Assembly: GCF_035561115.1 (NCBI RefSeq)
Contig: NZ_DATMYH010000035.1
Coordinates: 208 to 64,207 of the forward strand
DNA: 64,000 nucleotides
Reading direction: 5' to 3'
Source of the DNA: Brevundimonas sp.
Lineage (GTDB): Bacteria > Pseudomonadota > Alphaproteobacteria > Caulobacterales > Caulobacteraceae
A model generated the notes under the pieces. That model searched no databases and was not told the DNA's origin. It saw nothing but the letters and a program-made list of their open reading frames with translations. Positions 38,778 to 60,853 of this stretch are shown here, in pieces (position 1 is the first letter of the stretch; the number at the start of each line of letters is the position of its first letter). Made by a program: the position numbers and the translations under genes.

Positions 38778-38900
38778 AAAAAAGCCCGCCGCGGGGGATA
38801 CATCGCGGCGGGCTTCTTTTCGCTCTTTGACGAGCGGACGTTTCCTCCCCGAAACGCCTTCGAGCCGCTGCTGCGCCGAAACGCTGCGCTTCCCGAGTGC
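38778..38900 (-). ncRNA. Candidate sRNA, CrfA-like sponge
   Basis: TTGACT at 38933-38928 upstream; hairpin cgtttc-GGGGAG-gaaacg; hairpin cgctc/gagcg; 12-bp terminator stem with U6; no ORF. Confidence 0.62.
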
Positions 38901-38981
38901 GTCAAAAAGACGACATTTCTCAGTTCAAGTCAATGAAAGCCTTGCGGAACTCACAGTAAATCCAAGGTTATCGCTGATAAC

Positions 38982-40475
38982 TCACGAAGCTGTGTGCACA
39001 CCTTCGACGATGGCCCGGACGGCGGCGACCAGTTCGGCGCGCGCGACCACCCTTTGCCCCGGCCGTTCGGATTTCCACGCCTCGTTGTCGGTCACGCCGG
39101 CGGCCAGGGCGCGCCCGGCGTCGAGGTCCTTGACCGTGACCTGGCCGGCGGCGATCTCGTCGCCGCCGAGGATGACGGCGGCGGGCGCGCCGCGGCGGTC
39201 GGCGTACTTCATCTGCGCCTTCATGCCGGCCCGGCCGAGGTAGAGTTCGGCGGCGATTCCGGCGTTGCGCAGCTCTGACACGGCGTCGAGATAGTGCTGC
39301 ATGTCGGCGTCCGAGAAGACGATGACGACCACCGGGCCACGGACGGAATCCGCCGCGCCGCGCCCCGCCGCCTTCAATGCCGAGGCCAGCCGCGAGACGC
39401 CGAACGAGAAGCCGGTGGCGGGCAGGCGTTCGCCGGTGAAGCGGGCGACCAGATCATCGTACCGGCCGCCGCCGCCGATCGAGCCGAACCGCACGGCCCG
39501 GCCCCTGTCGTCGGTCGTGTCCAGCAGCAGCTCGGCCTCGAACACGGCGCCGGTGTAATACTCCAGCCCGCGCACGATGGTCGGGTCGAAGCGCACCGCG
39601 TCTTCGCTCACCCTCATCGAGACCAGGGCCCGGTCTATGGCCGCCAGTTCCTCGAGAGCCGCCTCTCCGATGGCGCCGAGGCCGCCGGCGCGCGCCACAG
39701 CCTCAAGCGTCGCCGTCCGGGACAGGGCGGCGTCGCCCGCCGAGGCGAGGAAGGCCTCGATGGTCGCCGCCACGCCGATCGGGAGATCCGCCCCCCTGGT
39801 GTAGTCGCCGGACTCATCCAGGCGGCCCTCGCCGAGAAGGGCCGACACCCCCTCCCAGCCCAGCCGGTCGAACTTGTCGATGGCGCGCAGGGCGGTGAGG
39901 CGCTGGCGCGGATCGGTGACGCCGCCGGCGTCGAACAGGCCGTCGAACAGCTTGCGGTTCGACACCCGGACCACGGCCTGGTCCGCGTCCAGCCCGGCGG
40001 CCTGCAGCCCCTCGCAGGCCATGGCGATGATCTCGGCGTCGGCCTCCGGCCGGTCGGAGCCGACCGTGTCCGCGTCGCACTGGACGAATTCGCGGAAGCG
40101 GCCCGGACCGGGCTTCTCGTTGCGCCACACGGGACCGAAGGCGTAGCGGCGGAACGGCTTGGGCAGGGTTTCCCAGCCCTGGGCCGCGAACCGGGCCAGG
40201 GGCGCGGTCAGATCGTAGCGCAGCGCCATCCACTGGTCGTCGTCGTCCTGCAGGGCGAAGACGCCCTCGTTCGGACGGTCGGCGTCGGGCAGGAATTTGC
40301 CCAGGGCGTCGGCGTATTCGAAGGCGCCGGTCTCCAGCGGCTCGAAGCCCCAGCGCTCATAGACTTCGGACACGCGCGCCACCAGGCGGCGCTCGGCGGT
40401 CAGATCCGCGCCGCGGCGGTCGGCGAACCCCCGCGGATTGCGGGCTTCGGGGCGGGACGGCGTATCGGTGCTCAT
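38982..40475 (-). CDS. hisS: Histidyl-tRNA synthetase
   Basis: PRGFAD, ALRYDLTAPLARF, WRNEKPGPGRFREFVQCDAD, RGLEYYTG, GGGRYDDL. Confidence 0.97.
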   Translation of the reverse strand: MSTDTPSRPEARNPRGFADRRGADLTAERRLVARVSEVYERWGFEPLETGAFEYADALGKFLPDADRPNEGVFALQDDDDQWMALRYDLTAPLARFAAQGWETLPKPFRRYAFGPVWRNEKPGPGRFREFVQCDADTVGSDRPEADAEIIAMACEGLQAAGLDADQAVVRVSNRKLFDGLFDAGGVTDPRQRLTALRAIDKFDRLGWEGVSALLGEGRLDESGDYTRGADLPIGVAATIEAFLASAGDAALSRTATLEAVARAGGLGAIGEAALEELAAIDRALVSMRVSEDAVRFDPTIVRGLEYYTGAVFEAELLLDTTDDRGRAVRFGSIGGGGRYDDLVARFTGERLPATGFSFGVSRLASALKAAGRGAADSVRGPVVVIVFSDADMQHYLDAVSELRNAGIAAELYLGRAGMKAQMKYADRRGAPAAVILGGDEIAAGQVTVKDLDAGRALAAGVTDNEAWKSERPGQRVVARAELVAAVRAIVEGVHTAS

Positions 40476-40539
40476 GCCGCGCCGCTTAAGCCATCGCCCG
40501 CCGGCGGGCAACGATCCCGACGAGGCTCCCGGTCAGTCC

Positions 40540-41805
40540 TCAGGCGACCGCGGTCTTCAGCAGCGGCACCATCCGGCCGTAGGTCAGGCAACGCCACACC
40601 CATTCCAGCGGACCCATGGTGAAGACCGACAGCCACAGCGGCGACCAGATCAACTGGGCGATCCACACGGCTGCGACCACGCCCCACAGCGCGCCCGGCC
40701 CCATGGTCCCGAACCAGTGCGGACCCCAGGGCATGTAGAACAGGGTCGACATGATCAGGGTCTGGGTGAGGTAGTTGGTGAAGGCCATCCGCCCGACCGG
40801 AGCCAGAACCTGCGTCAGCGGCTTCAGCCCGAACCGGGTCATCAGGATCAGGAGGCTGGCGTAGCCGAGGGTGATCAGGGGCGCGAAACTGCCTCCGACG
40901 CCGGCGAGACCGCGGGTCGGATCCTCGCCGGACGCCGCATTGGCTTCGATCCATTGATACCAGCCGAAGAAGGCCAGGTTGGCCGCGCCGATGGCCAGCA
41001 TCAACAGATAGACCCAGGTCGGCGACCGGCCGGTCAGGAAGCCGGACTTGAACAGGCCCAGGCCCAGCAGCATCAGGCTGACGGTGATCGGGATCAGGAC
41101 GAGGCTGGCGGACTGCAGGATCGCCCAGGCCTTGAGGTTCTCGATCTGCGCCGCGGGCCAGCCGGACTGGTAGGCCTGGATGACGGCCGCCAGCCCCTCG
41201 GGCGTGACCGCGAACGGATTCCCGTCGCCGCCGGCCGCCGCCGGGCCGCCTCCGCTGAACGCCGCCTCTCCCAGCATGGCGCCCGCCGACAACAGGCCGA
41301 ACAGCAGGTTGATCCCCCCGCCGATCCATATCAGCCGGCCGGCCTTCCAGGATCGCATGACCATGACGATCAGCGCGCAGTAGGCGTAGTGCAGCAGGAT
41401 GTCGCCCAGCCAGAAGGCGGCGCCGTGGATCAGGCCGAAGACCGCCAGCCAGAACAGCCGGCGGCGCAGCAACCGGCCCCGCGCCGCGTCGAACCGCTCG
41501 CCGCCGATCAGGAAGATCGAGACGCCGAACAGCATCGAGAACATCGAGCGGAATTTGTCCTGGAAGAAGACGTCGGTGGTCCAGGCGCCGAGGATGTTGG
41601 CCGGGCTGTGCGGCCAGGGTTCCGGCAGGCCCGTCGTCATCTCCAGCGCCGCGGGCCAGACGAACGACATGGCGTTGACGGCGAGGATGCCGAGGATCGC
41701 CCAGCCTCTGAGCATGTCGAGCGTGAAGATACGGTCGGCGGGCCTGACCGGTCCGAGCGTCGCGTCCGCGGCCGGCGGCGACGCCTGGATTTCGACTGCG
41801 GCCAT
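40540..41805 (-). CDS. DUF418 (YeiB) family membrane protein
   Basis: RIFTLDMLRGWAILGIL, KFRSMFSMLFG, GRMAFTNYLTQT, GPLEWVWR. Confidence 0.9.
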   Translation of the reverse strand: MAAVEIQASPPAADATLGPVRPADRIFTLDMLRGWAILGILAVNAMSFVWPAALEMTTGLPEPWPHSPANILGAWTTDVFFQDKFRSMFSMLFGVSIFLIGGERFDAARGRLLRRRLFWLAVFGLIHGAAFWLGDILLHYAYCALIVMVMRSWKAGRLIWIGGGINLLFGLLSAGAMLGEAAFSGGGPAAAGGDGNPFAVTPEGLAAVIQAYQSGWPAAQIENLKAWAILQSASLVLIPITVSLMLLGLGLFKSGFLTGRSPTWVYLLMLAIGAANLAFFGWYQWIEANAASGEDPTRGLAGVGGSFAPLITLGYASLLILMTRFGLKPLTQVLAPVGRMAFTNYLTQTLIMSTLFYMPWGPHWFGTMGPGALWGVVAAVWIAQLIWSPLWLSVFTMGPLEWVWRCLTYGRMVPLLKTAVA

Positions 41806-41873
41806 GACGTATCCCCCGAGGTTGGCCGGGCAAGCTTGGCCGAACCGTCGGCCGCGTCAAAGGGAAATCGGCG

Positions 41874-42443
41874 TCAGCCCGGACCGCGTTCGCCCATGAC
41901 GCCAAGCCGGTCGCGCACCTCGGGCTGGGGCATGAAGGCGATGAAGGCGGCGCACAGGCCGGCCCACAGCGCGTAGCTGACGCCCAGCAGCACGGCGATC
42001 GGCAGGCCGCCGACGCCATAGATCAGCAGGGTGGTCTCGGTCGCGCCCGCTGCCTGGGCGACGCCGCCGGCCTCGAACCAGCCGACGATCGACACGACAA
42101 GGGCCAGCATGGCCTGAAGGCCGGCCGCCAGCAGGCCGCCGTAGAACATGAAACGCCAGACCACGCCCAGCCGGGTCGCCGGCCGGCCGGTCCGGTCGCG
42201 TTCGCGCGCCAGAAGCCACAGCCCGCCCGGCACGGCCGCCAGACCGATGACCAGCACCAGCAGCCGCCAGTCCATCTCGAGGCTGGGCAGCCAGTTCTGC
42301 GGCGGCCAGACGACCAGGGTGATGACCAGCGGCGGCCACAGGGCTCCGGCCAGCGCCGCCAGCACGATGCGCTGCGGATCGCGGCGCCAGGAGACGCGCT
42401 GCTGGCCGGGAAAGTCTTCCGGCTTGTCCAGCGTCGGGATCAT
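41874..42443 (-). CDS. Hypothetical membrane protein (4 TM)
   Basis: Hydrophobic helices; ATGA-type overlap with hbd. Confidence 0.75.
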   Translation of the reverse strand: MIPTLDKPEDFPGQQRVSWRRDPQRIVLAALAGALWPPLVITLVVWPPQNWLPSLEMDWRLLVLVIGLAAVPGGLWLLARERDRTGRPATRLGVVWRFMFYGGLLAAGLQAMLALVVSIVGWFEAGGVAQAAGATETTLLIYGVGGLPIAVLLGVSYALWAGLCAAFIAFMPQPEVRDRLGVMGERGPG

Positions 42444-43318
42444 CGGGTCGGCGCCGGTTCGGGGCCGGAATAGTCGTAGAAGCCGCGCCCGGACTTGCGC
42501 CCCAGCCAGCCGGCCTCGACATATTTCACCAGCAGCGGGCAGGGCCGGTATTTGCTGTCGGCCAGACCGTCATAGAGGACGTTCATGATGGCCAGGACGA
42601 CGTCCAGGCCCATGAAGTCCGCCAGCTCCAGCGGCCCCATCGGATGGTTGGCCCCCAGTTTCAGCGCCTTGTCGATCGAGGCGACGTTGCCGACGCCCTC
42701 GTACAGGACATAGACCGCCTCGTTGATCATCGGCACCAGGATGCGGTTGACGATGAAGGCGGGAAAGTCCTCGGAATTGGTCGTCGTCTTGCCCAGGCTC
42801 TCGGCGAAGGCCACGGCCGCGTCATAGGTGCTGGCCGAGGTGGCGATGCCGCGGATGATCTCGACCAGCTTCATGACCGGCGCCGGCTTCATGAAATGCA
42901 GGCCGATGAAGCGCTCGGGCCGGTCGGTGGCCGAGGCCAGGCGGGTGATCGAGATCGACGAGGTGTTGGACGCCAGCAGGGTGTCCTTGCCCAGGTGCGG
43001 CGTCAGGTCGGCCAGGATGGATTTCTTGACCGCCTCGTCCTCGATCGCGGCCTCGATGACGAGGTCGGCCTTCGCCGCAGCGGCGAGGGAAGAGGCGGCG
43101 GAGATGCGCGACAGGGCGGCGTCGGCGGCGCCCTGATCGATCAGGCCGCGCGCGACCTGGCGGGCGAGGCTGGCGGCGATCGCGCCCTGCGCCTGCGGCA
43201 CGCGATCGCCGGCGGCGTCGTACAGCAGCACCTGATAGCCGCCTGCGGCCACGGCCTGGGCGATACCTGCGCCCATCTGGCCTGCGCCGACGATGGCGAC
43301 GGATCGGATCGTGGTCAT
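42440..43318 (-). CDS. hbd: 3-hydroxybutyryl-CoA dehydrogenase
   Basis: GAGQMGAGIA, ASNTSSISIT, GLHFMKP, FIVNRIL, HPMGPLELADFMGLD, GWLGRKSGRGFY. Confidence 0.93.
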   Translation of the reverse strand: MTTIRSVAIVGAGQMGAGIAQAVAAGGYQVLLYDAAGDRVPQAQGAIAASLARQVARGLIDQGAADAALSRISAASSLAAAAKADLVIEAAIEDEAVKKSILADLTPHLGKDTLLASNTSSISITRLASATDRPERFIGLHFMKPAPVMKLVEIIRGIATSASTYDAAVAFAESLGKTTTNSEDFPAFIVNRILVPMINEAVYVLYEGVGNVASIDKALKLGANHPMGPLELADFMGLDVVLAIMNVLYDGLADSKYRPCPLLVKYVEAGWLGRKSGRGFYDYSGPEPAPTR

Positions 43319-43444
43319 GAATCCCGGTTGGCTGGCGGGCGCGGGGCCCGGTCGGAGCGGCACCTTAGGACCCTCGCCGGACGGCGCAAGGCCGGAAGCG
43401 CCGGACCGTGGTGAACGGCCGACGGCGTGTCGCCGGGGTCGCGT

Positions 43445-43750
43445 TTATCCCAGCATCTGGATCAACACCGGCGCGGTCAGCCGGTTGAACAGGATGCGCA
43501 GGAAATGGATCAGCAGCAGAACCACGATCGGCGAGACATCGATGCCGCCCATCAGCGGGATGAAGCGGCGAAACGGCTCCAGGATGGGCGTCGTGATCCG
43601 GTCGAGGAAGTCCGCCAGCTGGTTCACGAACCGGTTGCGGCGGTTGATGACGTCGAAGGCGAACAGCCAGCTGATGATGGCCGACAGGATGATCGCCCAG
43701 GTCATGAGCGACAGGATCGTATTGACCAACCAGACGATGGCGTAACCCAT
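43445..43750 (-). CDS. yggT: YggT family membrane protein
   Basis: SWL..F.V, TTPILEPFRRFIP..GGIDVSPIVVLL. Confidence 0.92.
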   Translation of the reverse strand: MGYAIVWLVNTILSLMTWAIILSAIISWLFAFDVINRRNRFVNQLADFLDRITTPILEPFRRFIPLMGGIDVSPIVVLLLIHFLRILFNRLTAPVLIQMLG

Positions 43751-43900
43751 GAAGGGACTCCGGAAACAGGACAGCTCCCGCTTTTAACGTGGCCGCGTCC
43801 CACGTCCAGGGATTCCGCCATCGCGGGGCGGGCGATCTCAAGCCCGTTGACACTCCGGCCTCCGCCCTCGTATGTCGCGCCCTCGCCTGCACCCGGAAAC

Positions 43901-43976
<76 letters not shown>

Positions 43977-43994
43977 GGCACCCTCGCCGTCGAC

Positions 43995-44969
43995 ATGATC
44001 CAGTCCGCCAGTTCAGCCGCAGCGTGCTCCACCGGGCTGGTGAGGGTCGCCGCCCTGTACCGGTTCGCGGCCATCGCTGACTGCGCGCCTGTTCGCGACC
44101 GGCTGGAGCGCCTGGCCCGGCCGGACGTGCGCGGCACCCTGCTGGTCGCCCATGAAGGGCTGAACGGGACGATCGCGGGACCTGAAGCGTCCGTTGAGCG
44201 GGTGCTGGCGGGGATCCGCGCCCTGCCCGGTTTCGCCGACCTCGACGTGAAATACGCCACGGCGGAGACGATGCCCTTCCACCGCCTGAAGGTGCGGATC
44301 AAGCCCGAGATCGTCACCATGGGCCAGCCGGACCTCGACCCCGCCGTCAACGCCGGCGCCTATGTCGCCCCCGCCGACTGGAACGCCCTGATCCGCGATC
44401 CCGGCGTGATCGTGATCGACACGCGCAACGACTACGAGGCGGCCGTCGGCGCCTTCGAGGGCGCGATCCAGCCCAATACGCGGGGCTTCCGCGACTTTCC
44501 CGACTGGTTCCGCACCGAGGGCCGCGCCCTGCTGGACCGGCCGGACCCGCCGAAAGTGGCCATGTACTGCACCGGCGGCATCCGCTGCGAGAAGGCGACC
44601 GCCTTCCTCAAGGCCGAGGGCGTCCAGGACGTCTTCCATCTGGAGGGCGGGATCCTGCGCTATCTGGAGACGACGCCCGAGGCCGACAGCCTGTGGCGGG
44701 GGGAATGTTTCGTCTTCGACGAGCGGGTCGCCGTCGGCCACGGCCTGACCGCCGGCAGCCACAGCCTGTGCCGCGGCTGCCGCATGCCGGTCAGCGAGGA
44801 AGGCCGCGCGTCGGCCCGCTACATCGAAGGCGTCAGCTGCGACCGCTGCGCGGACGCCCGGACCGAGACGGACCGCGCACGGTATCTGGAACGGGCCCGC
44901 CAAGTGGAAATCGCACAACGGCGCGGGGTCGCCCACATCGGAGCGGCCCAGGCGTCGCCGAAGGACTAA
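43995..44969 (+). CDS. trhO: Rhodanese-related tRNA U34 hydroxylase (YceA/TrhO)
   Basis: [67 protein letters not shown]. Confidence 0.92.
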
Positions 44970-44970
44970 G

Positions 44971-45258
44971 CTACTGGTCCTCGTCGAACTTCCGTTCGAC
45001 CAGTTCGGCCAGGGCGGCCACGGCGGCCTCGGCCTCGGCGCCCTCGCCGACGATCTCGATGCCGCAGCCGTTGCCGGCGCCCAGCATCAGCAGACCCATG
45101 ATCGACAGGGCGTTCACCGTCACCCCGTCGCGGGTGACATGGATCTCGGCGTCGAAGCTGGAGGCCAGTTTGACGAATTTGGCCGAGGCGCGGGCGTGCA
45201 GGCCGCGCGTGTTGCAGATGTTGGCGGTGGCGCTGAACGGGTCCGACATCGCCGTCAC
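44971..45258 (-). CDS. ptsH: Phosphocarrier protein HPr/NPr
   Basis: NTRGLHARASAKFV, NALSIMGLLML. Confidence 0.95.
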   Translation of the reverse strand: MTAMSDPFSATANICNTRGLHARASAKFVKLASSFDAEIHVTRDGVTVNALSIMGLLMLGAGNGCGIEIVGEGAEAEAAVAALAELVERKFDEDQ

Positions 45259-45659
45259 TTCTCGCCCTGAAGCACCCAGCTGGCGACCGAGATGTATTTG
45301 CGGCCGGCGTCCTGGGCGTGGGCCACGCAGGCCTCCAGCGGTTCACGGCCGCGCACGCTGGCCAGTTTGATCAGCATCGGCAGGTTCAGCCCCGCGATGA
45401 CCTCGGCGTGCGTCTCTTCCATCACCGAAATGGCCAGGTTGGAGGGGGTGCCGCCGAACATGTCGGTCAGCAGGATGACGCCGTCGCCGTCGTTCACGGC
45501 GTTGGCCGCGTCGACGATGTCGCGGCGACGGCGCTCCATGTCGTCCTCGGGTCCGATGCAGATGGCCGCGACCCCGCGCTGGGGCCCGACGACGTGCTCC
45601 ATGGCGGCGAGAAATTCCGAGGCCAGTCCCCCGTGGGTGACGATCACCAGCCCGATCAT
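45255..45659 (-). CDS. PTS EIIA component, mannose/fructose family
   Basis: MIGLVIVTHG, LTDMFGGTPSN, GLNLPML. Confidence 0.93.
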   Translation of the reverse strand: MIGLVIVTHGGLASEFLAAMEHVVGPQRGVAAICIGPEDDMERRRRDIVDAANAVNDGDGVILLTDMFGGTPSNLAISVMEETHAEVIAGLNLPMLIKLASVRGREPLEACVAHAQDAGRKYISVASWVLQGEK

Positions 45660-45746
45660 GACGGCATTACCAAAGCTCGCGCCCCGCGTCCGACGGCCCT
45701 CAGAGCGCGCCGCAAGCCGGGCGGAATAGCCCAACTCCGCGTCGGG

Positions 45747-46175
45747 TTAAAGCGGGCTGGTCAGCAGTGTGACCTTTTCGACCGCGGACGGCTCTAATCC
45801 GCAAAGCCGGACGAGCGGCAGGCGCACGCCCGCAATCACGGTTTCCGCGGGCTCGGGCAGGCGTTCGACCGGCCCGGTCGACAGTTCGACCGCCAGCACC
45901 AGCCGGACCAGATCGAGGGCGCAGACCGGGATCACGCCGATGCCCCGCGCCTCGATCCGGCCCGCGATCGTCCCCGGGCAGACAGCGAAAAGCGACCCGC
46001 CGGAGGCGAAGACATGGGCGTAGTCGTCGGCCACCAGCCGCCAGCCGTGGCCGATCAGGCGCAGGGCCAGGTCGCTCTTGCCGGCGCCGGAGGGGCCGGT
46101 GATCAGGACGCCGCGCCAGCCGGAGCCGGGAATCCAGCGCGCCGCGACCGTGCCATGCAGGGGCTGGTCGCTCAT
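45747..46175 (-). CDS. hprK: HPr kinase/phosphorylase (short alphaproteobacterial type)
   Basis: LHGT, GVLITGPSGAGKSDLAL, LVADD, IEARGIG. Confidence 0.92.
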   Translation of the reverse strand: MSDQPLHGTVAARWIPGSGWRGVLITGPSGAGKSDLALRLIGHGWRLVADDYAHVFASGGSLFAVCPGTIAGRIEARGIGVIPVCALDLVRLVLAVELSTGPVERLPEPAETVIAGVRLPLVRLCGLEPSAVEKVTLLTSPL

Positions 46176-47815
46176 CCGCGTCGGCCGGCGGACGCCAGCG
46201 GCAGGGCGACCTCGAAGCGCGCGCCCGTGATCGCGCCGCGCTCGTCCGTCCGGTTTCCGGCCTGGACGTGGCCGCCATGAGCCTCGACGATCTGGCGGGC
46301 GATCGAAAGGCCGAGGCCGGAGTTGGCCCCGAAGGCCGTGCCCTTGGGCCGCGAGGTGTAGAACCGCTGGAAGACGGTCTCGAGGTTCTCGGGCGGAATG
46401 CCCGGCCCGTCGTCCTCGATGCTGACCCGGGCGGGACGGTCCGGGTCCGAGGGATCGCGGGTCAGCCCGATCCGCACCAGACCGTTCGGGGGGCTGAACG
46501 AGCGGGCGTTGTCGATCAGGTTGCGGAACACCTGTCCCAACGGCCCGTCCCGCCCGACGACCAGGATGTGATCGCCGGCCGGCGCCTCGAAGGCGATCCG
46601 CGGCTCGCCGGGCTTCCGTCCCGCCTCATAGACCCCGACGATCTCGGTCAGCAGGGTGGTGAGATCCAGCGTGCGGGGCCGGTCGCGCGCCAGTTCGGCG
46701 TCGAGCCGCGAGGCGTTGGAGATGTCGGTGATCAGCCGGTCCAGCCGCCGCACGTCCTGCTGCAGCAGGGCTGTCAGCTTTTCGCGCTGGGTCTCGGTCT
46801 TGACCAGAGGCAGGGTTTCCAGCGCCGAACGGATCGAGGTCAGCGGGTTCTTGATCTCGTGCGAGACGTCGGCGGCGAACCGCTCGATGGCGTCCATCCG
46901 GTCGGACAGGGTCTGGGTCATGGTCTCAAGCGAGCGGGCCAGATCGCCGATCTCGTCCTTGCGGCCCTCCAGATCAGGCAGGGAGATGGCGCGGGCGCGC
47001 TGCAGCCGGACCTCGTCCGCCGCCGCCGACAGCCGCATCACCGGCCGGGCCACGAACAGGTGCAGCAGCAGGGACGACAGCAGGGACACGCCCAGCGCCA
47101 CCAGGGCGAAGGGCATCAGGGCGCGGCGCTGGGCGTCCAGGGTCTCGTTGACGTCTCCCGCCTCCAGCGTCAGCACGCCCAGAACCTGCCGCACATGGCG
47201 CACGGGGATGGAGACGGACACGACCCGATCCCCGCTTTCGGATCGCCGGAGGGTGGACTGGGCCTGACCGTCCAGCGCCGCCTCCACCTCCGCCGCCAGG
47301 GCGTCGCGGGCCCGCTCGAGAGCAGCTTCATTGCGGGTGTGTTCCCCCGGATCGACCATGGGCGGCGGAGTGCCCGCAGGCCGGGCCGGCGGCAGGGACC
47401 GGCCGGGAATGGCCTCCGTCACGGCGAAGCTGTCGGCTACCAGCAAGCCGTCGATATCGAACAGGCGTGCGCGTTGGCCGGAAAGTATGAAGTTGTCGCG
47501 CAGCCATCGGCTGGCCTCGATCGGATCGAGGGAAGGCGTCGGCTCTCCCTTGGTGACGCCGATCCGCTCATCCCCGAGGACACGGACCAGCAACTCGGCC
47601 TGGGCGGCCAGCGTCTCCTGACGCGCCTCGATCAGACCACGCCGCCATTCGTTCAGCGCCAGCGCGCCGACAAACAGGATCAGCAGGCTGAGCAGGTTCA
47701 GGGCCAGGATCAGGCCGCCGAGCCGCGACCCCCCGAAGCGCTTCAGCGGGCGGCGCGGTTCGTCGTCTCCCGGCGGGAGCGGATCAGCTTTCGCGATAGC
47801 GATACCCGACGCCAT
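46172..47815 (-). CDS. chvG: Sensor histidine kinase ChvG/ExoS
   Basis: Two TM segments, HAMP (RKDEIGDL), [27 protein letters not shown]. Confidence 0.93.
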
Positions 47816-48488
47816 ACAGGGTCTCGATGGCGTCGAACTCGGGGTCGACCACCCGGAACTTCTTTCGCATCCGCTTGACGTGGCTGTCGATGGTGCGGTC
47901 GTCGACATAGACCTGGTCGTCGTAGGCGGCGTCCATCAGATTGTCGCGGCTCTTCACGAAGCCGGGCCGCTGGGCCAGGGCCTGCAGCAGCAGGAACTCG
48001 GTCACGGTCAGCTTGACCGGCTTGCCTTCCCAGGTGCTCTCGTGGCGCGCCGGATCCATCGACAGCTTGCCGCGCTTGATGGCCTTGGACGAATTCTCGC
48101 CCGAGGGCTCGGGCTCGCCGCCGTCCGCGCCGGTCCGGCGCAGCAGAGCCTTGACCCGCTCGATCAGCAGCCGCTGGCTGAAGGGTTTGTGGATGTAGTC
48201 GTCGGCGCCCAGGTTGAAGCCCAGGATCTCGTCGATCTCCTCATCGCGCGAGGTCAGCATGATGACCGGAATCTGCGAGGTCTGGCGCAGGCGGCGCAGC
48301 ACCTCCATCCCGTCCATGCGGGGCATCTTGACGTCCAGGATGGCCAGATCCGGCGGATTGGACTCCAGCGCCTCAAGCCCGGCGGCCCCGTCATGCCAGG
48401 CAGTGACCTTGTGGCCATGGCTTTCCAGCGCCAGCGAGACGGAGGCGACGATGTTCTCGTCGTCGTCGACCAGGGTGATGTTGGCCAA
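47784..48488 (-). CDS. chvI: Response regulator ChvI
   Basis: TTG start with AGGAG SD; [43 protein letters not shown]. Confidence 0.96.
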
Positions 48489-48694
48489 AGGCGGTCTCCT
48501 TGCAGACTCTTCGTTCGCAGTCTCAACGCACGGCAAGCGTTACCGTTCTAATCCATCATTGTTCAGCGCCGGTCGACCGAAAAGCCGGAAGACCGCCGCC
48601 GGGCCCACAGATGGGGCTCATCGCCACAATTCACAACGAAACCCCGCCTTAAAGCCTTGGCGCCATGATGGGCGGGAACAGTTTGAGCGTTTTG

Positions 48695-52741: not shown

Positions 52742-52803
52742 GGAACCCCCGGTAAAACTGAGGGCGGGACCATCCCCGACCGGGAGCCGGGGCGCAAGTC
52801 GCC

Positions 52804-53421
52804 CTAGAACTGCCGCCAGCTGTCGCCGGGGTCGCGTTCGCCGGGGTCGACGCTCTGCTGGCCCCAGGCGACGATCATCAGCAGCTTGTGGCTGCGAATA
52901 CGGAACTCTCCCGTCATGGGCACGACGGCCCCCAGCGGCGCCCCCGTCTTCGGCTCGTAGAGAAAGCCCGAGAACTCCGCGACGCCGACCCGGTCGCGGC
53001 GGCTGTAGAGCGACAGTTCCGGCACCGAGACGACATTGAAGCTGTCGTTGATCGGCACCCGCATGTCCGGCAATCCGAAGACGCGGCGCATCTGTTCCAG
53101 CGACAGCGCCCCGGCGCGCAGTTCGAACACCGCGTCGGCCTCCGACTTCGACGGAGCCAGGGCGTAGCCCGCCTCGGACAGGGCGGCGCGGATGGCGCTG
53201 ATCGCATAGGCGGCGTTCTCGGCGCGGAAGAAGGCGTCGTCGACGAAAATCCGCGAACCGGCCGGTATGGGCAGGGTCAGGCCCTCGACGGCGCGGTCGG
53301 CGGCGCGGGCGACCAGCAGCTGTTCGGTCGCGGTCCGTGACGGATAGGTCTCGGAGGTCGAGGCGCAGGCGGCCAGGGCGGAGGCCGCAGTCAGGACGGC
53401 GATCAGTGTCTTCACGGTCAC
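52804..53421 (-). CDS. Hypothetical lipoprotein (DUF6655-like)
   Basis: GTG start overlapping the gloA stop; lipobox LAAC; RTATEQLLVARAADRA. Confidence 0.7.
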   Translation of the reverse strand: MTVKTLIAVLTAASALAACASTSETYPSRTATEQLLVARAADRAVEGLTLPIPAGSRIFVDDAFFRAENAAYAISAIRAALSEAGYALAPSKSEADAVFELRAGALSLEQMRRVFGLPDMRVPINDSFNVVSVPELSLYSRRDRVGVAEFSGFLYEPKTGAPLGAVVPMTGEFRIRSHKLLMIVAWGQQSVDPGERDPGDSWRQF

Positions 53422-53858
53422 CAGTTCCCGGTGTTGGGCATCGAGGCCCATGGCTCGGCGGGGGGCAGGGGCGCGCCGTCCTGGAGCAGTTCTATGGAGA
53501 TGCCGTCGGGCGAGCGCACGAAGGCCATGTTGCCGTCGCGCGGCGGGCGGTTGATCACCACGCCGCCGTCCATCAGCCGCCGGCAGGCGGCGTAGATGTC
53601 GTCGACCCGGTAGGCCAGATGGCCGAAATTGCGACCGCCGTCATAGGGCTGGGGGTCCCAGTTGAAGGTCAATTCCACCTCGGGCGACCACTCGGTCTCC
53701 GCGCGGGCCCGGTCGGCCGGGGCGGCGAGGAAGACCAGGGTGTAGCGGCCGGCCTGGTTCTCCATCCGCCGCGTTTCGACCAGACCCAGCAGGTCGCAGT
53801 AGAAATGCAACGACGCCTCGAGGTCGGCGACCCGGACCATGGTGTGCAGATAGCGCAT
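53418..53858 (-). CDS. gloA: Lactoylglutathione lyase (glyoxalase I, VOC family)
   Basis: YLHTMVRV, GRYTLVFL, ELTFNW, NFGHLAY, AFVRSPDGISIELL. Confidence 0.88.
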   Translation of the reverse strand: MRYLHTMVRVADLEASLHFYCDLLGLVETRRMENQAGRYTLVFLAAPADRARAETEWSPEVELTFNWDPQPYDGGRNFGHLAYRVDDIYAACRRLMDGGVVINRPPRDGNMAFVRSPDGISIELLQDGAPLPPAEPWASMPNTGNW

Positions 53859-54001
53859 GAGGACGTCCGTCCTGGGAGAGGCGGGAAGCCGGCCTCTATA
53901 GCGACCCTTCGCCGCGATCGCGAATAACGGCCTGTTTCGGTGGATGCGTCCGCCTGCCCCGCCTGCTAGACGCGACCGGTCCGGCCCGCCGAAGGAATTC
54001 C

Positions 54002-54577
54002 ATGCTCCGCAAGCTCTACGATCAGGTCTTCGCCCTGGCCCGCAGCAAACACGCCACCCCGGCCCTGGCCGTGGTGTCCTTCACCGAAAGCTCGTTCTTC
54101 CCGGTGCCGCCGGACGTGATGCTGGCGCCGATGATTCTGGCGCGGCCGGACCGGGCGTACTTTTATGCGACCGTCTGCACGCTCGCCTCGGTGCTGGGCG
54201 CGATGCTGGGCTATGCGATCGGCTATTTCCTGACTGATGTCGGAATGATGATTCTGGCCTGGCTGGGCAAGGCCGACACCTTCGAGGCGTCCAAGGCCCT
54301 GTTCCAGCAGCACGGCGCCTGGGTGATCCTGATCAAGGGTCTGACCCCCATCCCGTTCAAGCTGATCACCATCGCCTCGGGCATCTTCCAGTTCAACTTC
54401 GCCCTGTTCGTGGCGTTGTGCGCCATGACCCGGGGCGCGCGCTTCTACGCCGAGGCCTTCATCCTGAGGCGCTGGGGCCCCCCGATGCTGGAGATGGTCG
54501 AGAAGCGGCTGGCGATGTGGAGCATCATCGGCCTGGTGGTGCTGGCCGGCGCCATAGCGGCGGTCAAGCTTCTCTGA
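54002..54577 (+). CDS. YqaA family (DedA/VTT domain) membrane protein
   Basis: SFTESSFFPVPPDVML, ASVLGAMLGY, TPIPFKLITIASG. Confidence 0.92.
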   Translation: MLRKLYDQVFALARSKHATPALAVVSFTESSFFPVPPDVMLAPMILARPDRAYFYATVCTLASVLGAMLGYAIGYFLTDVGMMILAWLGKADTFEASKALFQQHGAWVILIKGLTPIPFKLITIASGIFQFNFALFVALCAMTRGARFYAEAFILRRWGPPMLEMVEKRLAMWSIIGLVVLAGAIAAVKLL

Positions 54578-54653
54578 TCGGGCTTCTGCCCGGATCAGCG
54601 GATGTGCGGGAACCATCGACGGTAGCGATTGCGGCAGCTATGAACATCGTCCG

Positions 54654-55187
54654 ATGAGAGGCCTTTATCGACTCCTGACGCGGTGGTGGACCGCCTTCGC
54701 CCTCGCCGCCTCGCTGGCGCTGCTGGGCGCGGCGCATGCGTTCGAGCGGTTCGCCGGCCTGGCGCCCTGCAACCTGTGCCTCAAGCAGCGCGAAGTGTAC
54801 TGGGGCGCGGTGGCGATCGCCCTGACCGCCACCCTCTGGCACCTGGTCAGCCGGGGCAGCCGGGGGACCCCCCGCATCGCCGCCTTCCTGCTGGCCGTCG
54901 TCTTCGCCACGGGCGCGGTCACGGCCGCCTTCCACATGGGCGGCGAGATGAAGTGGTGGGATCTGCCCGCAAGCTGCGCCGGCGGCGGAGACGTCAACCT
55001 CGAGAGCCTCGCTGCGCTCGCGCTGGGCGCCGGACCGATCGAGACGCCGGTCTTCTGCGACACGGTGACATGGCGGTTCCTCGGCCTGTCGATGGCAGGA
55101 TGGAACGTTCTGATCTCGGCGGCCCTCGCCGTGTTCAGCCTGCTCGCCGCAAAGAGGCCCAAGGATGCCCGCGCTCCCCGAAGCTGA
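54654..55187 (+). CDS. dsbB: Disulfide bond formation protein B family
   Basis: PCNLCLKQR (CxxC), H..E..WW, second Cys pair, LGLSMAGWN. Confidence 0.9.
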   Translation: MRGLYRLLTRWWTAFALAASLALLGAAHAFERFAGLAPCNLCLKQREVYWGAVAIALTATLWHLVSRGSRGTPRIAAFLLAVVFATGAVTAAFHMGGEMKWWDLPASCAGGGDVNLESLAALALGAGPIETPVFCDTVTWRFLGLSMAGWNVLISAALAVFSLLAAKRPKDARAPRS

Positions 55188-55758
55188 TCACCTGACCGAC
55201 CGGCGCATTCCGCTGGCGCGGCCCGGACGGGGCGCCAGCCGGCGGCGGCGGGACGAGATCCTGCGCGTCGACCATGCCGGCGAATACGCCGCCGTCCACA
55301 TCTACCGCGCCCAGAAGGCCGTGTTCGAGGGCCGGGCGGGCAAGACGGCGCTCGCCGCCGACATGGGCGAGATGCGGGACCAGGAGGCGGTCCATCTGGC
55401 GCGGTTCGAGGCCCTGCTGAACGCCGAGCGCGTGCGCCCCACCCTGATGACTCCGGTCTGGCGGCTGGCGGCCATGGCGCTGGGAACCGGGACCGCCCTG
55501 ATGGGCGAGAAAGCCGCCCACGCCTGCACCGAGGCGGTCGAGAGCGTGATCGAGGAACACTATGCCGGTCAGATCGCCGAGCTTCGCGACCGCGATCCGG
55601 CCCTGGCGGCTGAATTGTCGGTGTTCCGGGATGAGGAACTGGCCCATCACGACCATGCGGTCGGGCGCGGGGCTCGCGAGGCGCCGGCGTATGGCCTGCT
55701 CAGCGCTGCCATCAAGGCCGGCTGCCGCGCCGCCATAAAGATCAGCGAAAAGGTCTGA
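55165..55758 (+). CDS. coq7: Demethoxyubiquinone hydroxylase (Coq7, di-iron)
   Basis: RVDHAGEYAA..IY..Q, ExxH (QEAVH), ACTEAVESVIEEHY..Q, DEELAH. Confidence 0.92.
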   Translation: MPALPEADHLTDRRIPLARPGRGASRRRRDEILRVDHAGEYAAVHIYRAQKAVFEGRAGKTALAADMGEMRDQEAVHLARFEALLNAERVRPTLMTPVWRLAAMALGTGTALMGEKAAHACTEAVESVIEEHYAGQIAELRDRDPALAAELSVFRDEELAHHDHAVGRGAREAPAYGLLSAAIKAGCRAAIKISEKV

Positions 55759-55829
55759 TCGCACGCCCGGGTTGCGCTCCGCCGTCTGGCAGGCATTATG
55801 GGGATCCAGGTTTTTTACAGGAGAGCCCT

Positions 55830-56135
55830 GTGTCATTCCCCATCGCCTTGCTTGCCTCGCTTCTGTTGCAACAGACTCCGCAGGTCGCCACCCCTCCCGC
55901 GGCGACAGTGGTTCCCGCCCCGGCGGCCGCTCCCGGAGCCGCGCCGGCGCCCGCCGGCGCCCGCGTGGTCGCGCAGCGGGCCGAACCGGTCCAGGTCTGC
56001 CGGACCGAACCGGTCACCGGATCGCGTTTCGGGCGTCGGGTTTGCCGCAGCGTCTTCCAGACCGAGGAGGACCGCGCCAACAGCCGGGAAATGCTGCGCC
56101 AGATGCAAGACGTCCGGACCACACCGGTCGGCTAA
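55830..56135 (+). CDS. Small exported hypothetical protein
   Basis: Signal-like N-terminus, Pro/Ala linker, VCRTEPVTGSRFGRRVC motif. Confidence 0.7.
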   Translation: MSFPIALLASLLLQQTPQVATPPAATVVPAPAAAPGAAPAPAGARVVAQRAEPVQVCRTEPVTGSRFGRRVCRSVFQTEEDRANSREMLRQMQDVRTTPVG

Positions 56136-57106
56136 CGTCTGACAGCGGCCCTCACATCGAAGGCCAGCAGCAGGGTTCGCTGGCGCGGATTGTCATTGTC
56201 GTCAGACAGGATGTAGAGACGCGTCCCCGATGCATGGGCCGCCGCCGCCAGGCCCTCGAAATTGTCCGTCGTCGACGGCAGGCTGAGGGTAGCGAGCACG
56301 GGCCCCAGCCGGCCGGACGGGTCCATGCGGCGCACGCGGGCGCGCATGTCGAACGGCTCGCGGTACAGCCGCTCGACGACGAACCAGCCATCGCCGGCCG
56401 GATCGCGGTCCATGCCGGTGACGCGCCAGTCGGCGACGGCGAGCGGCGTCGACGGCGGCGGCGCGACCTCGGTGCAGCGCAAGGCCGTGCAATCCCAGAC
56501 CCCTCCGCCCTCTGCAACGGCGCGCAGACCTTCGGCCCCCGCCGCCAGCGCCTCCAGACCGTCGTTGCCGGGCGGAACGGGCGGAACCGCAAGCGCTGAC
56601 GGGCGACTCCTCAGCGCATCAAGCGGGCCGTAGGACCACAGCCGGGGCGTCTGTTCGAAGCCCACCACCAGCTCGCCGGCCGCCGTGATCGCCAGGCTTT
56701 CGGCGTCGCCGTCCGACTTGGACGGGAAGGCGCGCCCGTCCCCCGCGGTCAGGTTGCGCAAACGGAGGCCGGACAGGCCGGCCAGCCGGCCTCGCCCATC
56801 GAACGCCAGCCGTCCCCGCACCAGATCGCCGGCGTCGGTGACCGCCACCAGGTCTCCATCCGAAAGCTTCAGATCTGACAGGCCATGCAACCGGTCGCCC
56901 GCCGGCGCGAGGATCTGGACGCCGCCCGCGTAGCGCACGCCCGGCCCCAGCCGGACGCCCCCGGGCACGCCCAGACCGACCGTGCGGATTTCCGCGGCGA
57001 CGGGCGTCCAGCCGTCGGCGGAGCCTCGCCACGGTTCGGAAATCACGCCCGCGCCCGCGCAGGCGCCCAGCATCAATGTCAGGCTGACGGCGGCGAGCCG
57101 CCTCAA
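56132..57106 (-). CDS. Esterase-like activity of phytase family lipoprotein
   Basis: TTG start overlapping the cobT stop; lipobox LGAC; [31 protein letters not shown]. Confidence 0.8.
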
Positions 57107-58974
57107 GCGGCCTTCCGGCGGCGCCCGGCTGAAACCGCCTTGGGCTCGGCGTCGAACAGGGCGGCCAGGTTCTCGACCATGGCTCCGGCCAGCTGTTCGA
57201 CATCGACGATCGTCACGGCGCGGCGGTACCAGCGGGTCACGTCGTGGCCGATGCCGATGGCCATCAGCTCGACCGGCGAGCGGGTCTCGATCTCGGCGAT
57301 GACCTGACGCAGATGCTTGTCCAGGTAGAGGGCCGCATTGGCCGACTGGGTGGAATCGTCGACCGGCGAACCGTCCGAAATGACCATCAGGATCCGGCGC
57401 GACTCGGTGCGGCCCAGCAGGCGCTCGTGGGCCCAGGTCAGGGCCTCGCCGTCGATGTTCTCCTTCAGCAGCCCCTCGCGCATCATCAGGCCGAGACTCT
57501 TTTTCGCCCGGCGCCACGGCGCGTCGGCGGATTTGTAGATGATGTGCCGCAGGTCATTCAGCCGCCCCGGGTTGGCGGGCTTGCCGGCGGTGATCCAGGC
57601 CTCGCGCGACTGGCCGCCCTTCCAGGCCCGGGTGGTGAAGCCGAGGATCTCGACCTTGACCCCGCAGCGCTCCAGCGTCCGCGCCAGAATGTCGGCGCAC
57701 ACGGCCGCCACCATGATCGGCCGCCCGCGCATCGAGCCGGAGTTGTCGAGCAGCAGGGTCACCACCGTGTCGCGGAACGGGCTTTCGCTCTCGGCCTTGA
57801 AGCTGAGTGGACTGGTGGGGTCGGTGATGATCCGGGTCAGGCGGGCGGTGTCCAGCACCCCTTCCTCAAGGTCGAAATGCCAGCTGCGGTTCTGTTGCGC
57901 CATCAGACGGCGTTGCAGCTTGTTGGCCAGACGCGACACCACCGAGGACAGGGCCGTGAGCTGCTGGTCCAGCAGGGCGCGCAGCCGCTCCAGCTCGTTC
58001 GGATCGCACAGCTCGGCGGCGTCCACCACCTCGTCGAAGGCGGTGGTGAAGACGCGATAGGCGTCGATGGCCCGGCCGTCGTCCATGGTCTGCTGGCGGT
58101 TGGGCAGGGAGCCCTCGTTGACATCCGGCCCGTCATCCGAGGCTTCGCCATCGGGATCGCCCGGCGCGCCGTCCGGGCGGCTGTCGCGGTCCTCGCCCTG
58201 GTCCTGATCGTCCGTCGAGCCGTCCATCGACTGGCCCTCGCCGCCGCCGGCGTCGTCTTCCTCGTCCTGATCGGCGGCCGCGTCCGGGTCCTGCCCATCG
58301 GGCTCCTCGTCGCCCTGGTCGTCCGAGGCGTCGTCTCCGCGGCCGTCGCCGGGATCGAGATCCAGTGCGCGGAGAACGTCTTTCAACCGTTCGGCGAAGA
58401 CGGTCTGGTCGCCGGCGACCTCGGCCAGCGCGTCGAGTTTCGCGCCCGCCTTATCCTCGATGGCCGCGCGGACGAGGTCCAGCATCGACCCTGCGCCGTC
58501 GGGGGCGCGTTCGCCGGTCAGGCGTTCCCGCACCAGCAGGGCCACGGCCTCGGGCAGAGGCACCCGCTCGGCGTCGGCGCGCAGGGCCCCCATCTTCTCC
58601 AGTCGGGTCAACAGGGCCGCGTTCATATTGGCGCGGACCCCGGCGAGGGCGGTCGAGCCCACGGCCTCGACCCTGGCCTGTTCCACCGCCTCGAACACCT
58701 CGGAGGCGCGCGTGTCCACCGGCCGCAGCCTCGCGTGCAGGCCTTCGTCGTGATTGGCGAGACGCAGGGCCAGCCGGTCGGCCTGTCCGCGCAGGGTTGC
58801 GTTCTCGGGCGCGCCGGGATCGCGCGGCGGGTGCGGCAGGGTCAGGACGCCGTTGGCCAGCTTCGGCCCGTCCGAGCCGAAGGCGACCTCAAGCTCGGAC
58901 TGCTCGGCCAGCGCCCGCGCCGCATGGGCGAGCGCGCGCTTGAAGATGTCGGCGGGAGTGTCGGCGGAGGCCAT
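57103..58974 (-). CDS. cobT: Cobaltochelatase subunit CobT (VWA domain)
   Basis: [16 protein letters not shown], acidic linker, [41 protein letters not shown]. Confidence 0.93.
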
Positions 58975-59024
58975 AAGGGTCAGATAGCGGTTCTGTCTCG
59001 CCGGGAGAAGGCGGACAAAGCCCA

Positions 59025-59187
59025 CTCCTTCCCCATTTCATGGGGAGGTGGATCGTCGGCGCAGCCGGCGAGACGGAGGGGGCGACTCGGTGACGGGGAT
59101 TGGCGGGCGACCGGCTGAACCCGGCGTCGCCCCCTCCGTCACGGCGCGAAGGCGCGCCGCGCCACCTCCCCACGATGTGGGGAGGAG
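59025..59187. repeat. RIME/CIR-like palindromic element (family of 26672-26817)
   Basis: ctccttccccatttcatggggaggtgg ... ccacctccccacgatgtggggaggag; inner gacggagggggcgac / gtcgccccctccgtc arms. Confidence 0.85.
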
Positions 59188-59193
59188 ACGAAA

Positions 59194-59751
59194 CTACGCC
59201 GCGTTCGCCGCCTTCGACTTCAGCTTGTCCTGGTGCGCGCGCATGCCGACGGCGATCAGTTCGGCGGCCTCGCCGGCGTCGCCCCAGCCCTTGACCGTGA
59301 CCGACTTGTTCTTCTCCAGATCCTTGTAGCGGGTGAAGAAGTGCTCGATCTGCTCGACCAGAATGGCCGGCAGCTGCCGGTAGCTGGCGATGTCGGTGTA
59401 ATAGGGGTTCAACTTGTCGACCGGCACGGCCAGGATCTTCTCGTCGCCGCCGGCCTCGTCTTCCATCTTCAGCACGCCGATCGGACGCGAGCGGATGATG
59501 CAGCCCGGCACGACCGGAGTCGGGTTCAGCACGATCACGTCGCAGGGGTCGCCGTCGTCCGACAGGGTGTGCGGGATGAAGCCGTAGTTGCCCGGATAGT
59601 ACATGGCGGTGTGCAGGAAGCGGTCGACGAACAGGGCGCCCGAGGCCTTGTCCATCTCGTACTTGACCGGCAGGCCGCCCTGCGGGATCTCGATGATGAC
59701 ATTGACGTCCCAGGGCGGGTTCGGGCCGACGGGGATGGCGTCGATATTCAT
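59194..59751 (-). CDS. ppa: Inorganic pyrophosphatase
   Basis: [52 protein letters not shown]. Confidence 0.97.
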
Positions 59752-59920
59752 GGCGCGTCCGGTTATGCTGCAGTGCGATACGAGTGGCGGGCGTGATAGG
59801 CGCGCACGGCGCCCGAAGCAAGGCGGGGGATGGTTTTGCGCTATGTTCGCGACGCGGTCGCTCACGGCTTGAGCGCGGGACGGCCGCGCGCCACCATGCC
59901 GCTGTGACAAGGAGCGACCC

Positions 59921-60604
59921 ATGACCCTTTTCGACTGGCTGGCCCTCGCCTTCTTTCTCGTCTGCTGGCTCGGCTACGGGCCTCTGCTCAGTCTGCTGGC
60001 GCGGCGCAGCGGCACGTTGAACGACGACATGCTGATCGTGCGCCGTGTCTGGATGACCGCGATGACCCATCGCGAAATCCGCCTCGTCGACAGCAACCTG
60101 CTGGGCCACACGATCAATTCCGGGGGTTTCTTCGCCTCCACCAACCTGCTGCTGATCGCGGCCGTGGGCAGCGTCCTGTTCGGAGGCGAACAGGCGATCG
60201 CGGGATTCGCCTCGGTGGGGGACGATGATGTGCCGACCCGCCTGCTCAAGGCCAAGCTGGCGCTGGTACTGCTCTGTCTGTCGCGGGGCCTGCTGGATTT
60301 CATCTGGTCGATCCGTCAGCTGAACTATTCGCTGGCCCTGATCGGCGCGGCCCCGGAGGTGCATACCGAGGCGGACAGGGTCGCGCTCGGCGACGCGGCG
60401 GCCAATCTGCTGAATCCGGCGCTCAGCGCCTTCAGCCAGGGCGTGCGGGGTTATTATTTCGCGCTCGCGGCGGCCGCCTGGCTGTTCGGCCCCCTTTGGC
60501 TGGCGATCGGCGTCGCGGCCATTTCCTGCCTGCTGGTCTGGCGTCAGGCCGGTTCTCCGGCCGCCCGGGCCATCCGTAGCGCCCGGCGCCTGCTGGAGCC
60601 CTGA
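59921..60604 (+). CDS. DUF599 family membrane protein
   Basis: [31 protein letters not shown]. Confidence 0.88.
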
Positions 60605-60735
60605 GGCCGAACGGCCAAGGCCGTTCGCAGATGCGCTGGCACGCGGACAGATTTTGCCGCCGGAAACGGTTACACTACGATCACGCGGACCGATCATGCC
60701 GTTACAAGGCGTGAACGCAGGTGCGAAGTACCGTC

Positions 60736-60764
60736 TTGACGATTTGTGCACCGCACACTAACTT
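60736..60764 (+). promoter_or_regulatory. Sigma70 promoter of the alpha-r8 sRNA with embedded regulator sites
   Basis: TTGACG-N17-TAACTT; TTGTGCA at 60744-60750; TGTGC-ACC-GCACA palindrome at 60745-60757. Confidence 0.75.
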
Positions 60765-60771
60765 GATCTTC

Positions 60772-60853
60772 GACGCCTCCGGGCGTCATGCCCTTCCTGG
60801 GCGTTTCCTCCCTAAAGACTTTTATGCCGCGCCTTCGGGCGCGGCTTTTTTTT
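60772..60853 (+). ncRNA. alpha-r8 / suhB / MmgR / Sis family sRNA
   Basis: Core cccttcctgggcgtttcctccctaaagactt; 5' hairpin; terminator gccgcgcc-ttcg-ggcgcggc-T8; convergent with N-formylglutamate amidohydrolase next to cpdR and tRNA-Val, the context I recall for alpha-r8s1. Confidence 0.85.

Follow-up and report, generated by a model that had tools for sequence, protein, structure and literature searches.

CrfA and alpha-R8 loci in the Brevundimonas window

The stretch of DNA analysed here (the window) comprises 64,000 nt of a Brevundimonas genome (NCBI RefSeq assembly GCF_035561115.1, contig NZ_DATMYH010000035.1, positions 208 to 64,207, forward strand). When the window was searched with the Rfam models at their curated thresholds, four matches were obtained: two tRNAs and two small RNAs (sRNAs), namely CrfA and suhB/MmgR (alpha-R8). 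CrfA (RF01527) was matched at 38773–38881 on the minus strand with 44.8 bits (gathering score 38), and suhB/MmgR/alpha-R8 (RF00519) at 60783–60861 on the plus strand with 62.5 bits (gathering score 41). The two loci are very probably the Brevundimonas orthologs of the Caulobacter sponge RNA CrfA and of SisA, its principal target and the alpha-R8/MmgR family member that is linked to an N-formylglutamate amidohydrolase (FGase) gene. The minus-strand RNA was assigned to CrfA because of the RF01527 score above the cut-off, the synteny with hisS and an identical G/A-rich stem-loop. The alpha-R8 RNA was assigned to SisA because it is FGase-linked, a linkage that marks the ancestral sisA-type copy. 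The coordinates of all features are given in Table 1.

Table 1. Coordinates of the two sRNA genes, their elements and the flanking genes in the window
Feature	Position	Strand	Basis or remark
crfA ortholog, sRNA of approximately 126 nt with stem-loops 1, 2 and 3 and terminator	38773–38898	−	RF01527, fold, genus alignment
CrfA stem-loop 2, G/A-rich hairpin GGCGUUUC / GGGGAG / GAAACGUC with 8-bp stem	38837–38858	−	Minimum-free-energy fold
Sponge site GGGGAGGAAACGUCCG	38835–38850	−	Stem-loop 2 loop, 3' arm and 2 nt; matches protected G49–C63 of C. crescentus CrfA (PMC12559287)
CrfA Rho-independent terminator with U6 tail; A-rich AAAAGAAG just before (38813–38820)	38778–38815	−	Fold
Putative crfA promoter: TTGACT (38928–38933), 15 nt, CGTCTTTT (38905–38912)	38905–38933	−	Inferred from order-wide consensus TTGAC-N16-CGT
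hisS, same strand as crfA and directly upstream of it	38982–40511	−	TIGR00442, 365.6 bits (cut-off 286.75); crfA synteny marker
M13 peptidase gene, other flank of CrfA	36379–38526	+	
alpha-R8/MmgR/SisA-ortholog sRNA: 5' hairpin, weak hairpin, free seed, U8 terminator	~60772–60853	+	RF00519, fold
Target site UGGGCGUUUCCUCCCU	60798–60813	+	Contains the family 10-mer anti-Shine-Dalgarno seed (60804–60813); matches SisA G33–C45 (PMC12559287)
Putative alpha-R8 promoter TTGACG-N15-ACTAAC, housekeeping sigma-70 type	60736–60762	+	Inferred match to Caulobacter consensus
FGase gene, convergent with the alpha-R8 gene	60852–61709	−	Pfam PF05013, E = 8.8e-69; sisA synteny marker

The CrfA match was the only one in the entire 3.3-Mb genome (127 contigs). 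The 5' end of crfA was placed at 38898 from the conserved proximal ACTCG and the promoter spacing in the genus alignment, and the RNA from 38898 to 38773 folded into four hairpins (−65.9 kcal/mol, z = −3.98). An earlier note on this DNA had assigned the 38.8-kb RNA to the minus strand, which was borne out by the strand of the Rfam match, the promoter pattern, the U-tail and the G:U pairs of stem-loop 2. In the genus alignment, the minus-strand U-run after the terminator was conserved and the plus-strand tail was not. Among 118 unique CrfA sequences taken from Caulobacterales-wide loci, a few of which are probably chance matches from other phyla, the second pair of stem-loop 2 was G-C in 65 and G:U in 49. 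Read from the plus strand, each such G:U pair would become an A-C mismatch, so that the tolerance of G:U fits the minus strand only.

The same note had named as its counter-case transcription of the locus from the plus strand as an alpha-R8 paralog, which would make it a sibling of the target rather than its partner. The plus strand does carry an alpha-R8-like core (CGTTTCCTCCCC), and the hairpin at 38782–38815 also scores as a plus-strand terminator. However, a permissive Rfam scan (E ≤ 10) of 38500–39200 returned no RF00519 match on either strand. The only terminator-like plus-strand hairpin sits upstream of the core and not downstream, and a separate terminator at 38548–38577 serves the upstream peptidase gene. 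Together with the unconserved plus-strand T-tail in relatives, the conserved minus-strand promoter and U-tail and the A-C mismatches in the stem, these observations make a plus-strand paralog almost inconceivable.

Upstream of crfA, the pattern TTGAC-N16-CGT(C/T), usually followed by a T-rich stretch, was the majority consensus of approximately 130 aligned CrfA loci. These loci were mostly from Caulobacterales, and TTGAC-N16-CGT had a per-column conservation of approximately 0.6–0.7. The Caulobacter sigma-70 consensus, TTGAC-16 bp-(G/C)CTANA (PMC3751524), is matched by the −35 box and by the spacing; the −10 box misfits and resembles the 'CGT' box of extracytoplasmic function (ECF)-type promoters. 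Right after the hisS stop codon, approximately 70–80 nt upstream of the inferred crfA start, there is a perfect palindrome, TTATC-AGC-GATAA (38968–38980). Forms of the TTATC-N3-GATAA or GTTCA type occurred at the same place in most Brevundimonas loci compared and were absent from the compared Caulobacter, Phenylobacterium and Asticcacaulis loci. The palindrome may be an operator site.

The alpha-R8 RNA folded with −40.9 kcal/mol (z = −5.33). According to the fold and a terminator scan, its weak hairpin is followed by the unpaired 10-mer UUUCCUCCCU (60804–60813), then by AAAGACUUUUAU and then by the Rho-independent terminator. The promoter region (60736–60764, plus strand) contains a TTGTGCA heptamer and, in the spacer, the palindrome TGTGC-ACC-GCACA; TTGTGC-N3-GCA-N2-TA was kept in all 45 genus alpha-R8 sequences. 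Searches of the whole genome with the covariance model, with the motif alone and with the motif combined with a terminator detected no alpha-R8 sibling besides this single locus. Two motif occurrences were examined and rejected. A second exact TTTCCTCCCT (contig C50, 75139–75148) is not an alpha-R8 gene, being located in a 5' leader without a terminator, approximately 30 nt upstream of the ATG of a signal-peptide-like open reading frame at the extreme end of the contig. The other, CGTTTCCTCCC on contig C59, appears inside a coding sequence.

Complementarity between the two RNAs and its conservation

The minus-strand segment 38850–38835 (GGGGAGGAAACGUCCG) pairs with 60798–60813 (UGGGCGUUUCCUCCCU) in a gapless, antiparallel manner over 16 of 16 positions, with 13 Watson-Crick and three G:U pairs, as determined with a script. 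The duplex has a free energy of −29.5 kcal/mol in isolation. When both RNAs were co-folded, stem-loop 2 of CrfA was opened and the intermolecular helix was formed, with a net gain of −10.7 kcal/mol. In the fold, the CrfA side of the duplex consists of the 6-nt loop GGGGAG (38845–38850), the entire 3' arm of stem-loop 2 (38837–38844) and 2 nt past the arm. The alpha-R8 side consists of the unpaired 10-mer and the 3' arm of the weak hairpin. The sequences, coordinates and pair counts that the earlier note had given were reproduced on re-reading the letters and by the script, as were its statements that the sponge seed begins inside a hairpin loop and that the pairing covers the whole anti-Shine-Dalgarno seed.

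Of the 61 genomes in the genus sample, 60 had CrfA and 59 had alpha-R8. The CrfA segment GGCGUUUCGGGGAGGAAACGUCCGCUC was identical in all 28 extracted genus sequences, as was the whole sponge site, and the 14-nt alpha-R8 core GGGCGUUUCCUCCC was identical in 45 of 45. The exact 18-mer of the CrfA core was found in genomes of Brevundimonas, Caulobacter, Phenylobacterium, Asticcacaulis, Terricaulis, Robiginitomaculum and Hyphomonadaceae, with a few probable chance matches in unrelated phyla. In each of 15 genomes bearing the 18-mer, the genome's own CrfA formed a gapless duplex of 14–18 bp with its own alpha-R8 RNA; this duplex was kept in Caulobacter, Phenylobacterium, Asticcacaulis, Hyphomonadaceae and Terricaulis.

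The three CrfA positions opposite the invariant GGG of alpha-R8 were pyrimidines in almost all of 129 sequences (UCCG in 55, CCCG in 37, CCCU in 13 and CUCG in 10). With pyrimidines only, G-C or G:U pairing is kept. Outside the Hyphomonadaceae lineage, changes at these CrfA positions were one-sided, from C to U. In Hyphomonadaceae (three genomes), both partners differed from the Caulobacter forms (CrfA ...CGCUCGUA, alpha-R8 UAUGGGCG...) and two added pairs extended the duplex to 18 bp. This two-sided change in one lineage is a hint of covariation and not proof.

The frequency with which such a match arises by chance was estimated from base composition. For a 16/16 match with at most three G:U pairs, the expected number is approximately 1.1 in the genome when both strands are counted, 0.02 in a 64-kb window and 1.8e-5 in a single specified 126-nt RNA. 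With G:U permitted everywhere, four genomic sites paired 16/16 with the alpha-R8 segment, compared with 10.9 expected: one on the antisense strand of the alpha-R8 gene itself, one in CrfA and two more with four G:U pairs each. Unrestricted RNAduplex energies, for which 225 of 3000 random genomic 126-mers scored as well as the real pair, were uninformative against both these segments and shuffles, as the comparison was swamped by full-length artificial duplexes. Gapless-run statistics and co-folding were used in their place.

The complementarity might be a by-product of composition, in which a Shine-Dalgarno-like GGAGG run faces an anti-Shine-Dalgarno run and the two RNAs do not meet functionally in this organism. 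Several observations weigh in this direction or against the sponge reading. The raw complementarity statistic is borderline genome-wide, with about one such site expected per genome and the two further 16/16 sites found elsewhere. Covariation within the genus, which the earlier note had put forward as a check, was not visible, both partners being invariant. The first two flank pyrimidines of CrfA are equally constrained by its own stem, and the flank reads ACGUCCG here instead of ACGCCCG in Caulobacter, which turns one G-C pair into G:U. The alpha-R8 seed is conserved across the Alphaproteobacteria regardless of CrfA (PMC12559287), also in genomes that lack it, so the invariance of the seed is independent of CrfA; a search under strict filters of a sample of 249 alphaproteobacterial genomes from outside the genus, just one of them from the same order, gave no CrfA. 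On the other hand, no part of this orthologous sRNA is more conserved than the site, which is invariant in the genus and occurs as an exact 18-mer across the order, and the same pairing has been shown in Caulobacter by probing, mutation and RIL-seq (ligation of interacting RNAs and their sequencing; PMC12559287). The match is regarded as non-random because of its location, where a conserved sRNA loop of one Rfam family meets the seed of a second family, and because of its conservation and its homology to an experimentally mapped interaction, and not because of the raw count. A composition by-product is highly improbable.

Comparison with the Caulobacter circuit

In Caulobacter crescentus, CrfA sponges the four alpha-R8 siblings SisA-D, as demonstrated by Vogt et al. 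(Nat Commun 2025; PMC12559287) with RIL-seq, structure probing, compensatory mutations and physiology. CrfA-SisA was the predominant chimera in Hfq RIL-seq, and sisA is the copy adjoining the FGase gene (PMC12559287). CrfA G49–C63 and SisA G33–C45 were protected in probing; point mutations abolished the mutual down-regulation of CrfA and SisA, and direct pairing of SisA with mRNAs was confirmed by compensatory mutations (PMC12559287). CrfA acted on targets, which were de-repressed, only with the siblings present, and Hfq dependence was shown (PMC12559287). Upon carbon starvation, CrfA was induced, SisA fell approximately 50-fold, and this depletion depended on CrfA; the transcriptional control of CrfA is still unknown according to that study (PMC12559287).

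The Brevundimonas pair shares with this circuit the two Rfam families and the paired elements, which are the loop and 3' arm of stem-loop 2 on one side and the 10-mer seed with its 5' flank on the other. In both systems, the target gene is FGase-linked, hisS lies close to crfA and the genome encodes hfq. The sponge-and-target reading of the earlier note was therefore right in kind, as the nucleotides that pair are those of the published interaction site (PMC12559287). Its description of the pair as an undescribed equivalent of CrfA-Sis did not hold, since RF01527, hisS, FGase and the site identify the published circuit itself, seen here in a sister genus. The overall picture is unchanged, the mechanism having been published before, and the finding is an ortholog of a known system.

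The two systems differ in minor respects. This genome has one alpha-R8 copy, whereas C. crescentus has four; other Brevundimonas genomes gave one to four alpha-R8 matches at E ≤ 0.001, many of them under the gathering score. Stem-loop 1 is shorter here than in Caulobacter, and the Rfam alignment skips part of it. Here crfA lies directly downstream of hisS; hisS adjoins crfA or lies within approximately 3 kb of it in the fetched Caulobacter loci.

Synteny was compared among fetched loci, in which the nearest named relatives were Brevundimonas genomes with approximately 90% and 87% nucleotide identity over 4.5 kb. The FGase gene adjoined alpha-R8 in 42 of 60 related loci, and most exceptions were extra paralogs. 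Of 150 CrfA loci, 118 had hisS in the fetched sequence flanking the core; Caulobacter, Phenylobacterium, Asticcacaulis and Terricaulis loci were among them. Among relatives with both genes on one contig, the spacing between crfA and the FGase-linked alpha-R8 gene was 22–50 kb in some (G026, G054, G058, G052, G045, G017 and G051) and 135–320 kb in others (G003, G020, G034, G036 and G056). The 22-kb linkage characterises one clade and does not represent a fixed module.

This analysis established the identity of the two RNAs, their pairing, predicted structures and synteny, that both partners are conserved and that the genome has hfq. Drawing on the Caulobacter experiments, we infer how the pair would be transcribed and induced by starvation, how it would depend on Hfq, and what sponge effect and targets it would have. 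The alpha-R8 RNA would be made from a housekeeping-type promoter and, together with Hfq, would repress mRNAs at their ribosome-binding sites with its unpaired anti-Shine-Dalgarno seed. Carbon starvation would induce CrfA, and the GGGGAG loop of the second hairpin would nucleate pairing with the seed. The helix would then extend into the 3' arm of stem-loop 2 to reach 16 bp, by which the seed would be masked, decay of the alpha-R8 RNA promoted and its targets de-repressed.

According to the original model of 2010, cited in PMC12559287, CrfA is mainly a direct activator of mRNAs; in a variant, it has additional direct mRNA targets, with alpha-R8 pairing being secondary in either case. Other single-stranded stretches of CrfA and its A-rich segment could indeed contact Hfq or mRNAs. 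In Caulobacter, however, CrfA had no effect on reporters after deletion of sisA-D or in a heterologous host, and CrfA-mRNA chimeras were not recovered (PMC12559287). Furthermore, the sole strongly conserved single-stranded element of CrfA is the loop complementary to alpha-R8. This reading is very unlikely in either form.

The sponge reading could also be refined such that the roles are reciprocal: an abundant, constitutive alpha-R8 RNA would also titrate and destabilise basal CrfA and thereby set the threshold of the starvation switch, and neither RNA would be purely a sponge. Over-expression of SisA in Caulobacter decreased full-length CrfA and gave a decay fragment, and pairing-deficient CrfA had a higher basal level (PMC12559287). 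The single alpha-R8 copy in this genome points to a simple one-to-one stoichiometric contest. Such reciprocity would refine the sponge reading instead of replacing it, and the sequence is compatible with both directions of the effect, which it cannot separate. We regard it as possible, though somewhat unlikely.

The pair can also be set beside two better-known sRNA systems. MmgR of Sinorhizobium meliloti and SuhB of Sphingopyxis granuli share the sRNA architecture, the 10-mer seed and the TTGTGCA heptamer in the promoter region with the alpha-R8 RNA described here, but a CrfA-type sponge is not known in those orders. In the QrrX-Qrr system of Vibrio, an analogy drawn in PMC12559287, one sponge sRNA likewise masks the shared seed of sibling sRNAs and hastens their decay; the likeness is one of mechanism only, and the quorum-sensing signal, like the sequences and the organism, is unrelated.

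Experimentally, the sponge pair has been shown only in C. crescentus; throughout Brevundimonas and in much of the Caulobacterales, the pair is retained and its interaction site is identical. This conservation supports the sponge as an old, order-wide part of carbon-starvation control and not a quirk of one model strain. A genome with single-copy alpha-R8 would offer a simpler background than the four siblings of Caulobacter for studying sponge/target stoichiometry, and the TTGAC-N16-CGT pattern could help to find the regulator of crfA.

Polyhydroxybutyrate genes and additional observations

The earlier note had also suggested that the circuit gates polyhydroxybutyrate (PHB) storage through phaZ and hbd in the window. 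This was not supported. The phaZ candidate (31287–32504, minus strand, 405 amino acids) reached 55.7 bits, compared with a cut-off of 300 for intracellular polyhydroxyalkanoate depolymerase, and was rejected as a generic alpha/beta hydrolase; it scored higher for 3-oxoadipate enol-lactonase models, also far under their cut-offs, and for no family above any curated cut-off. hbd is genuine (42440–43363, NF005715, 488.6 bits, cut-off 420), without a convincing seed site: the best predicted one is loop-interrupted, apparently weak and inside the coding region. When the 55 genes of the window were ranked by seed-to-mRNA duplex, hbd came 14th and the alpha/beta hydrolase 47th, so that neither stood out. 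Proximity within 4–29 kb is not evidence of regulation.

PHB machinery is encoded elsewhere in the genome, with two phaC genes, two phasin genes and phbB. The ribosome-binding site of phbB carries AGGAAACGC 2 nt upstream of the AUG, which forms nine Watson-Crick pairs with the seed part GCGUUUCCU; the site, ggacaAGGAAACGCacAUG, is located at approximately 29520–29536 of contig C28, outside the window. For the two phaC and two phasin genes, only gapless runs of 6–9 nt (G:U allowed) and weak seed-duplex energies of −4 to −9 kcal/mol were obtained. Among 19 genus orthologs of phbB with a locatable start codon, the 9-mer was found in six, all from the nearest clade, and an 8-mer elsewhere in three more; the remainder had a plain Shine-Dalgarno sequence only.

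MmgR and SuhB limit PHB accumulation; SuhB, the Sphingopyxis alpha-R8 RNA, directly targets phbB, and its deletion leads to over-accumulation of PHB (bioRxiv 10.64898/2025.12.09.693200). A connection to PHB is plausible as a weak lead through this homology and the 9-nt match to phbB, and not through the neighbours in the window. In a one-to-one pair of CrfA and alpha-R8, the alpha-R8 seed may occlude the ribosome-binding site of phbB (acetoacetyl-CoA reductase), and CrfA would then lift a brake on PHB synthesis in carbon starvation. We consider this proposal unlikely; if true, it would join the 'feast-to-famine' sponge of Caulobacter to the role of MmgR/SuhB in PHB control.

Further features were observed next to crfA and elsewhere in the genome. 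The space between the peptidase and CrfA terminators (38600–38760) is occupied by a long imperfect inverted repeat (gacccgggggacccggcggc ... gccgctgggtcccccggtc), which yields spurious microRNA-precursor matches on both strands and may be a repetitive extragenic element. Over the 3' end of the M13 peptidase gene and its terminator (38514–38584, plus strand), there was a sub-threshold Rfam match to the Bradyrhizobiaceae sRNA BjrC68 (28.4 bits, cut-off 39, E = 3e-5). On contig C118, at approximately 26479 of the minus strand, a hairpin is formed by CGUCUCCUCCCU (then CCUCCCC) with AGGGAGGAGACG. Its 5' arm is an anti-Shine-Dalgarno-like CCUCC repeat, as in other alphaproteobacterial sRNA families, and the hairpin may belong to a further sRNA.

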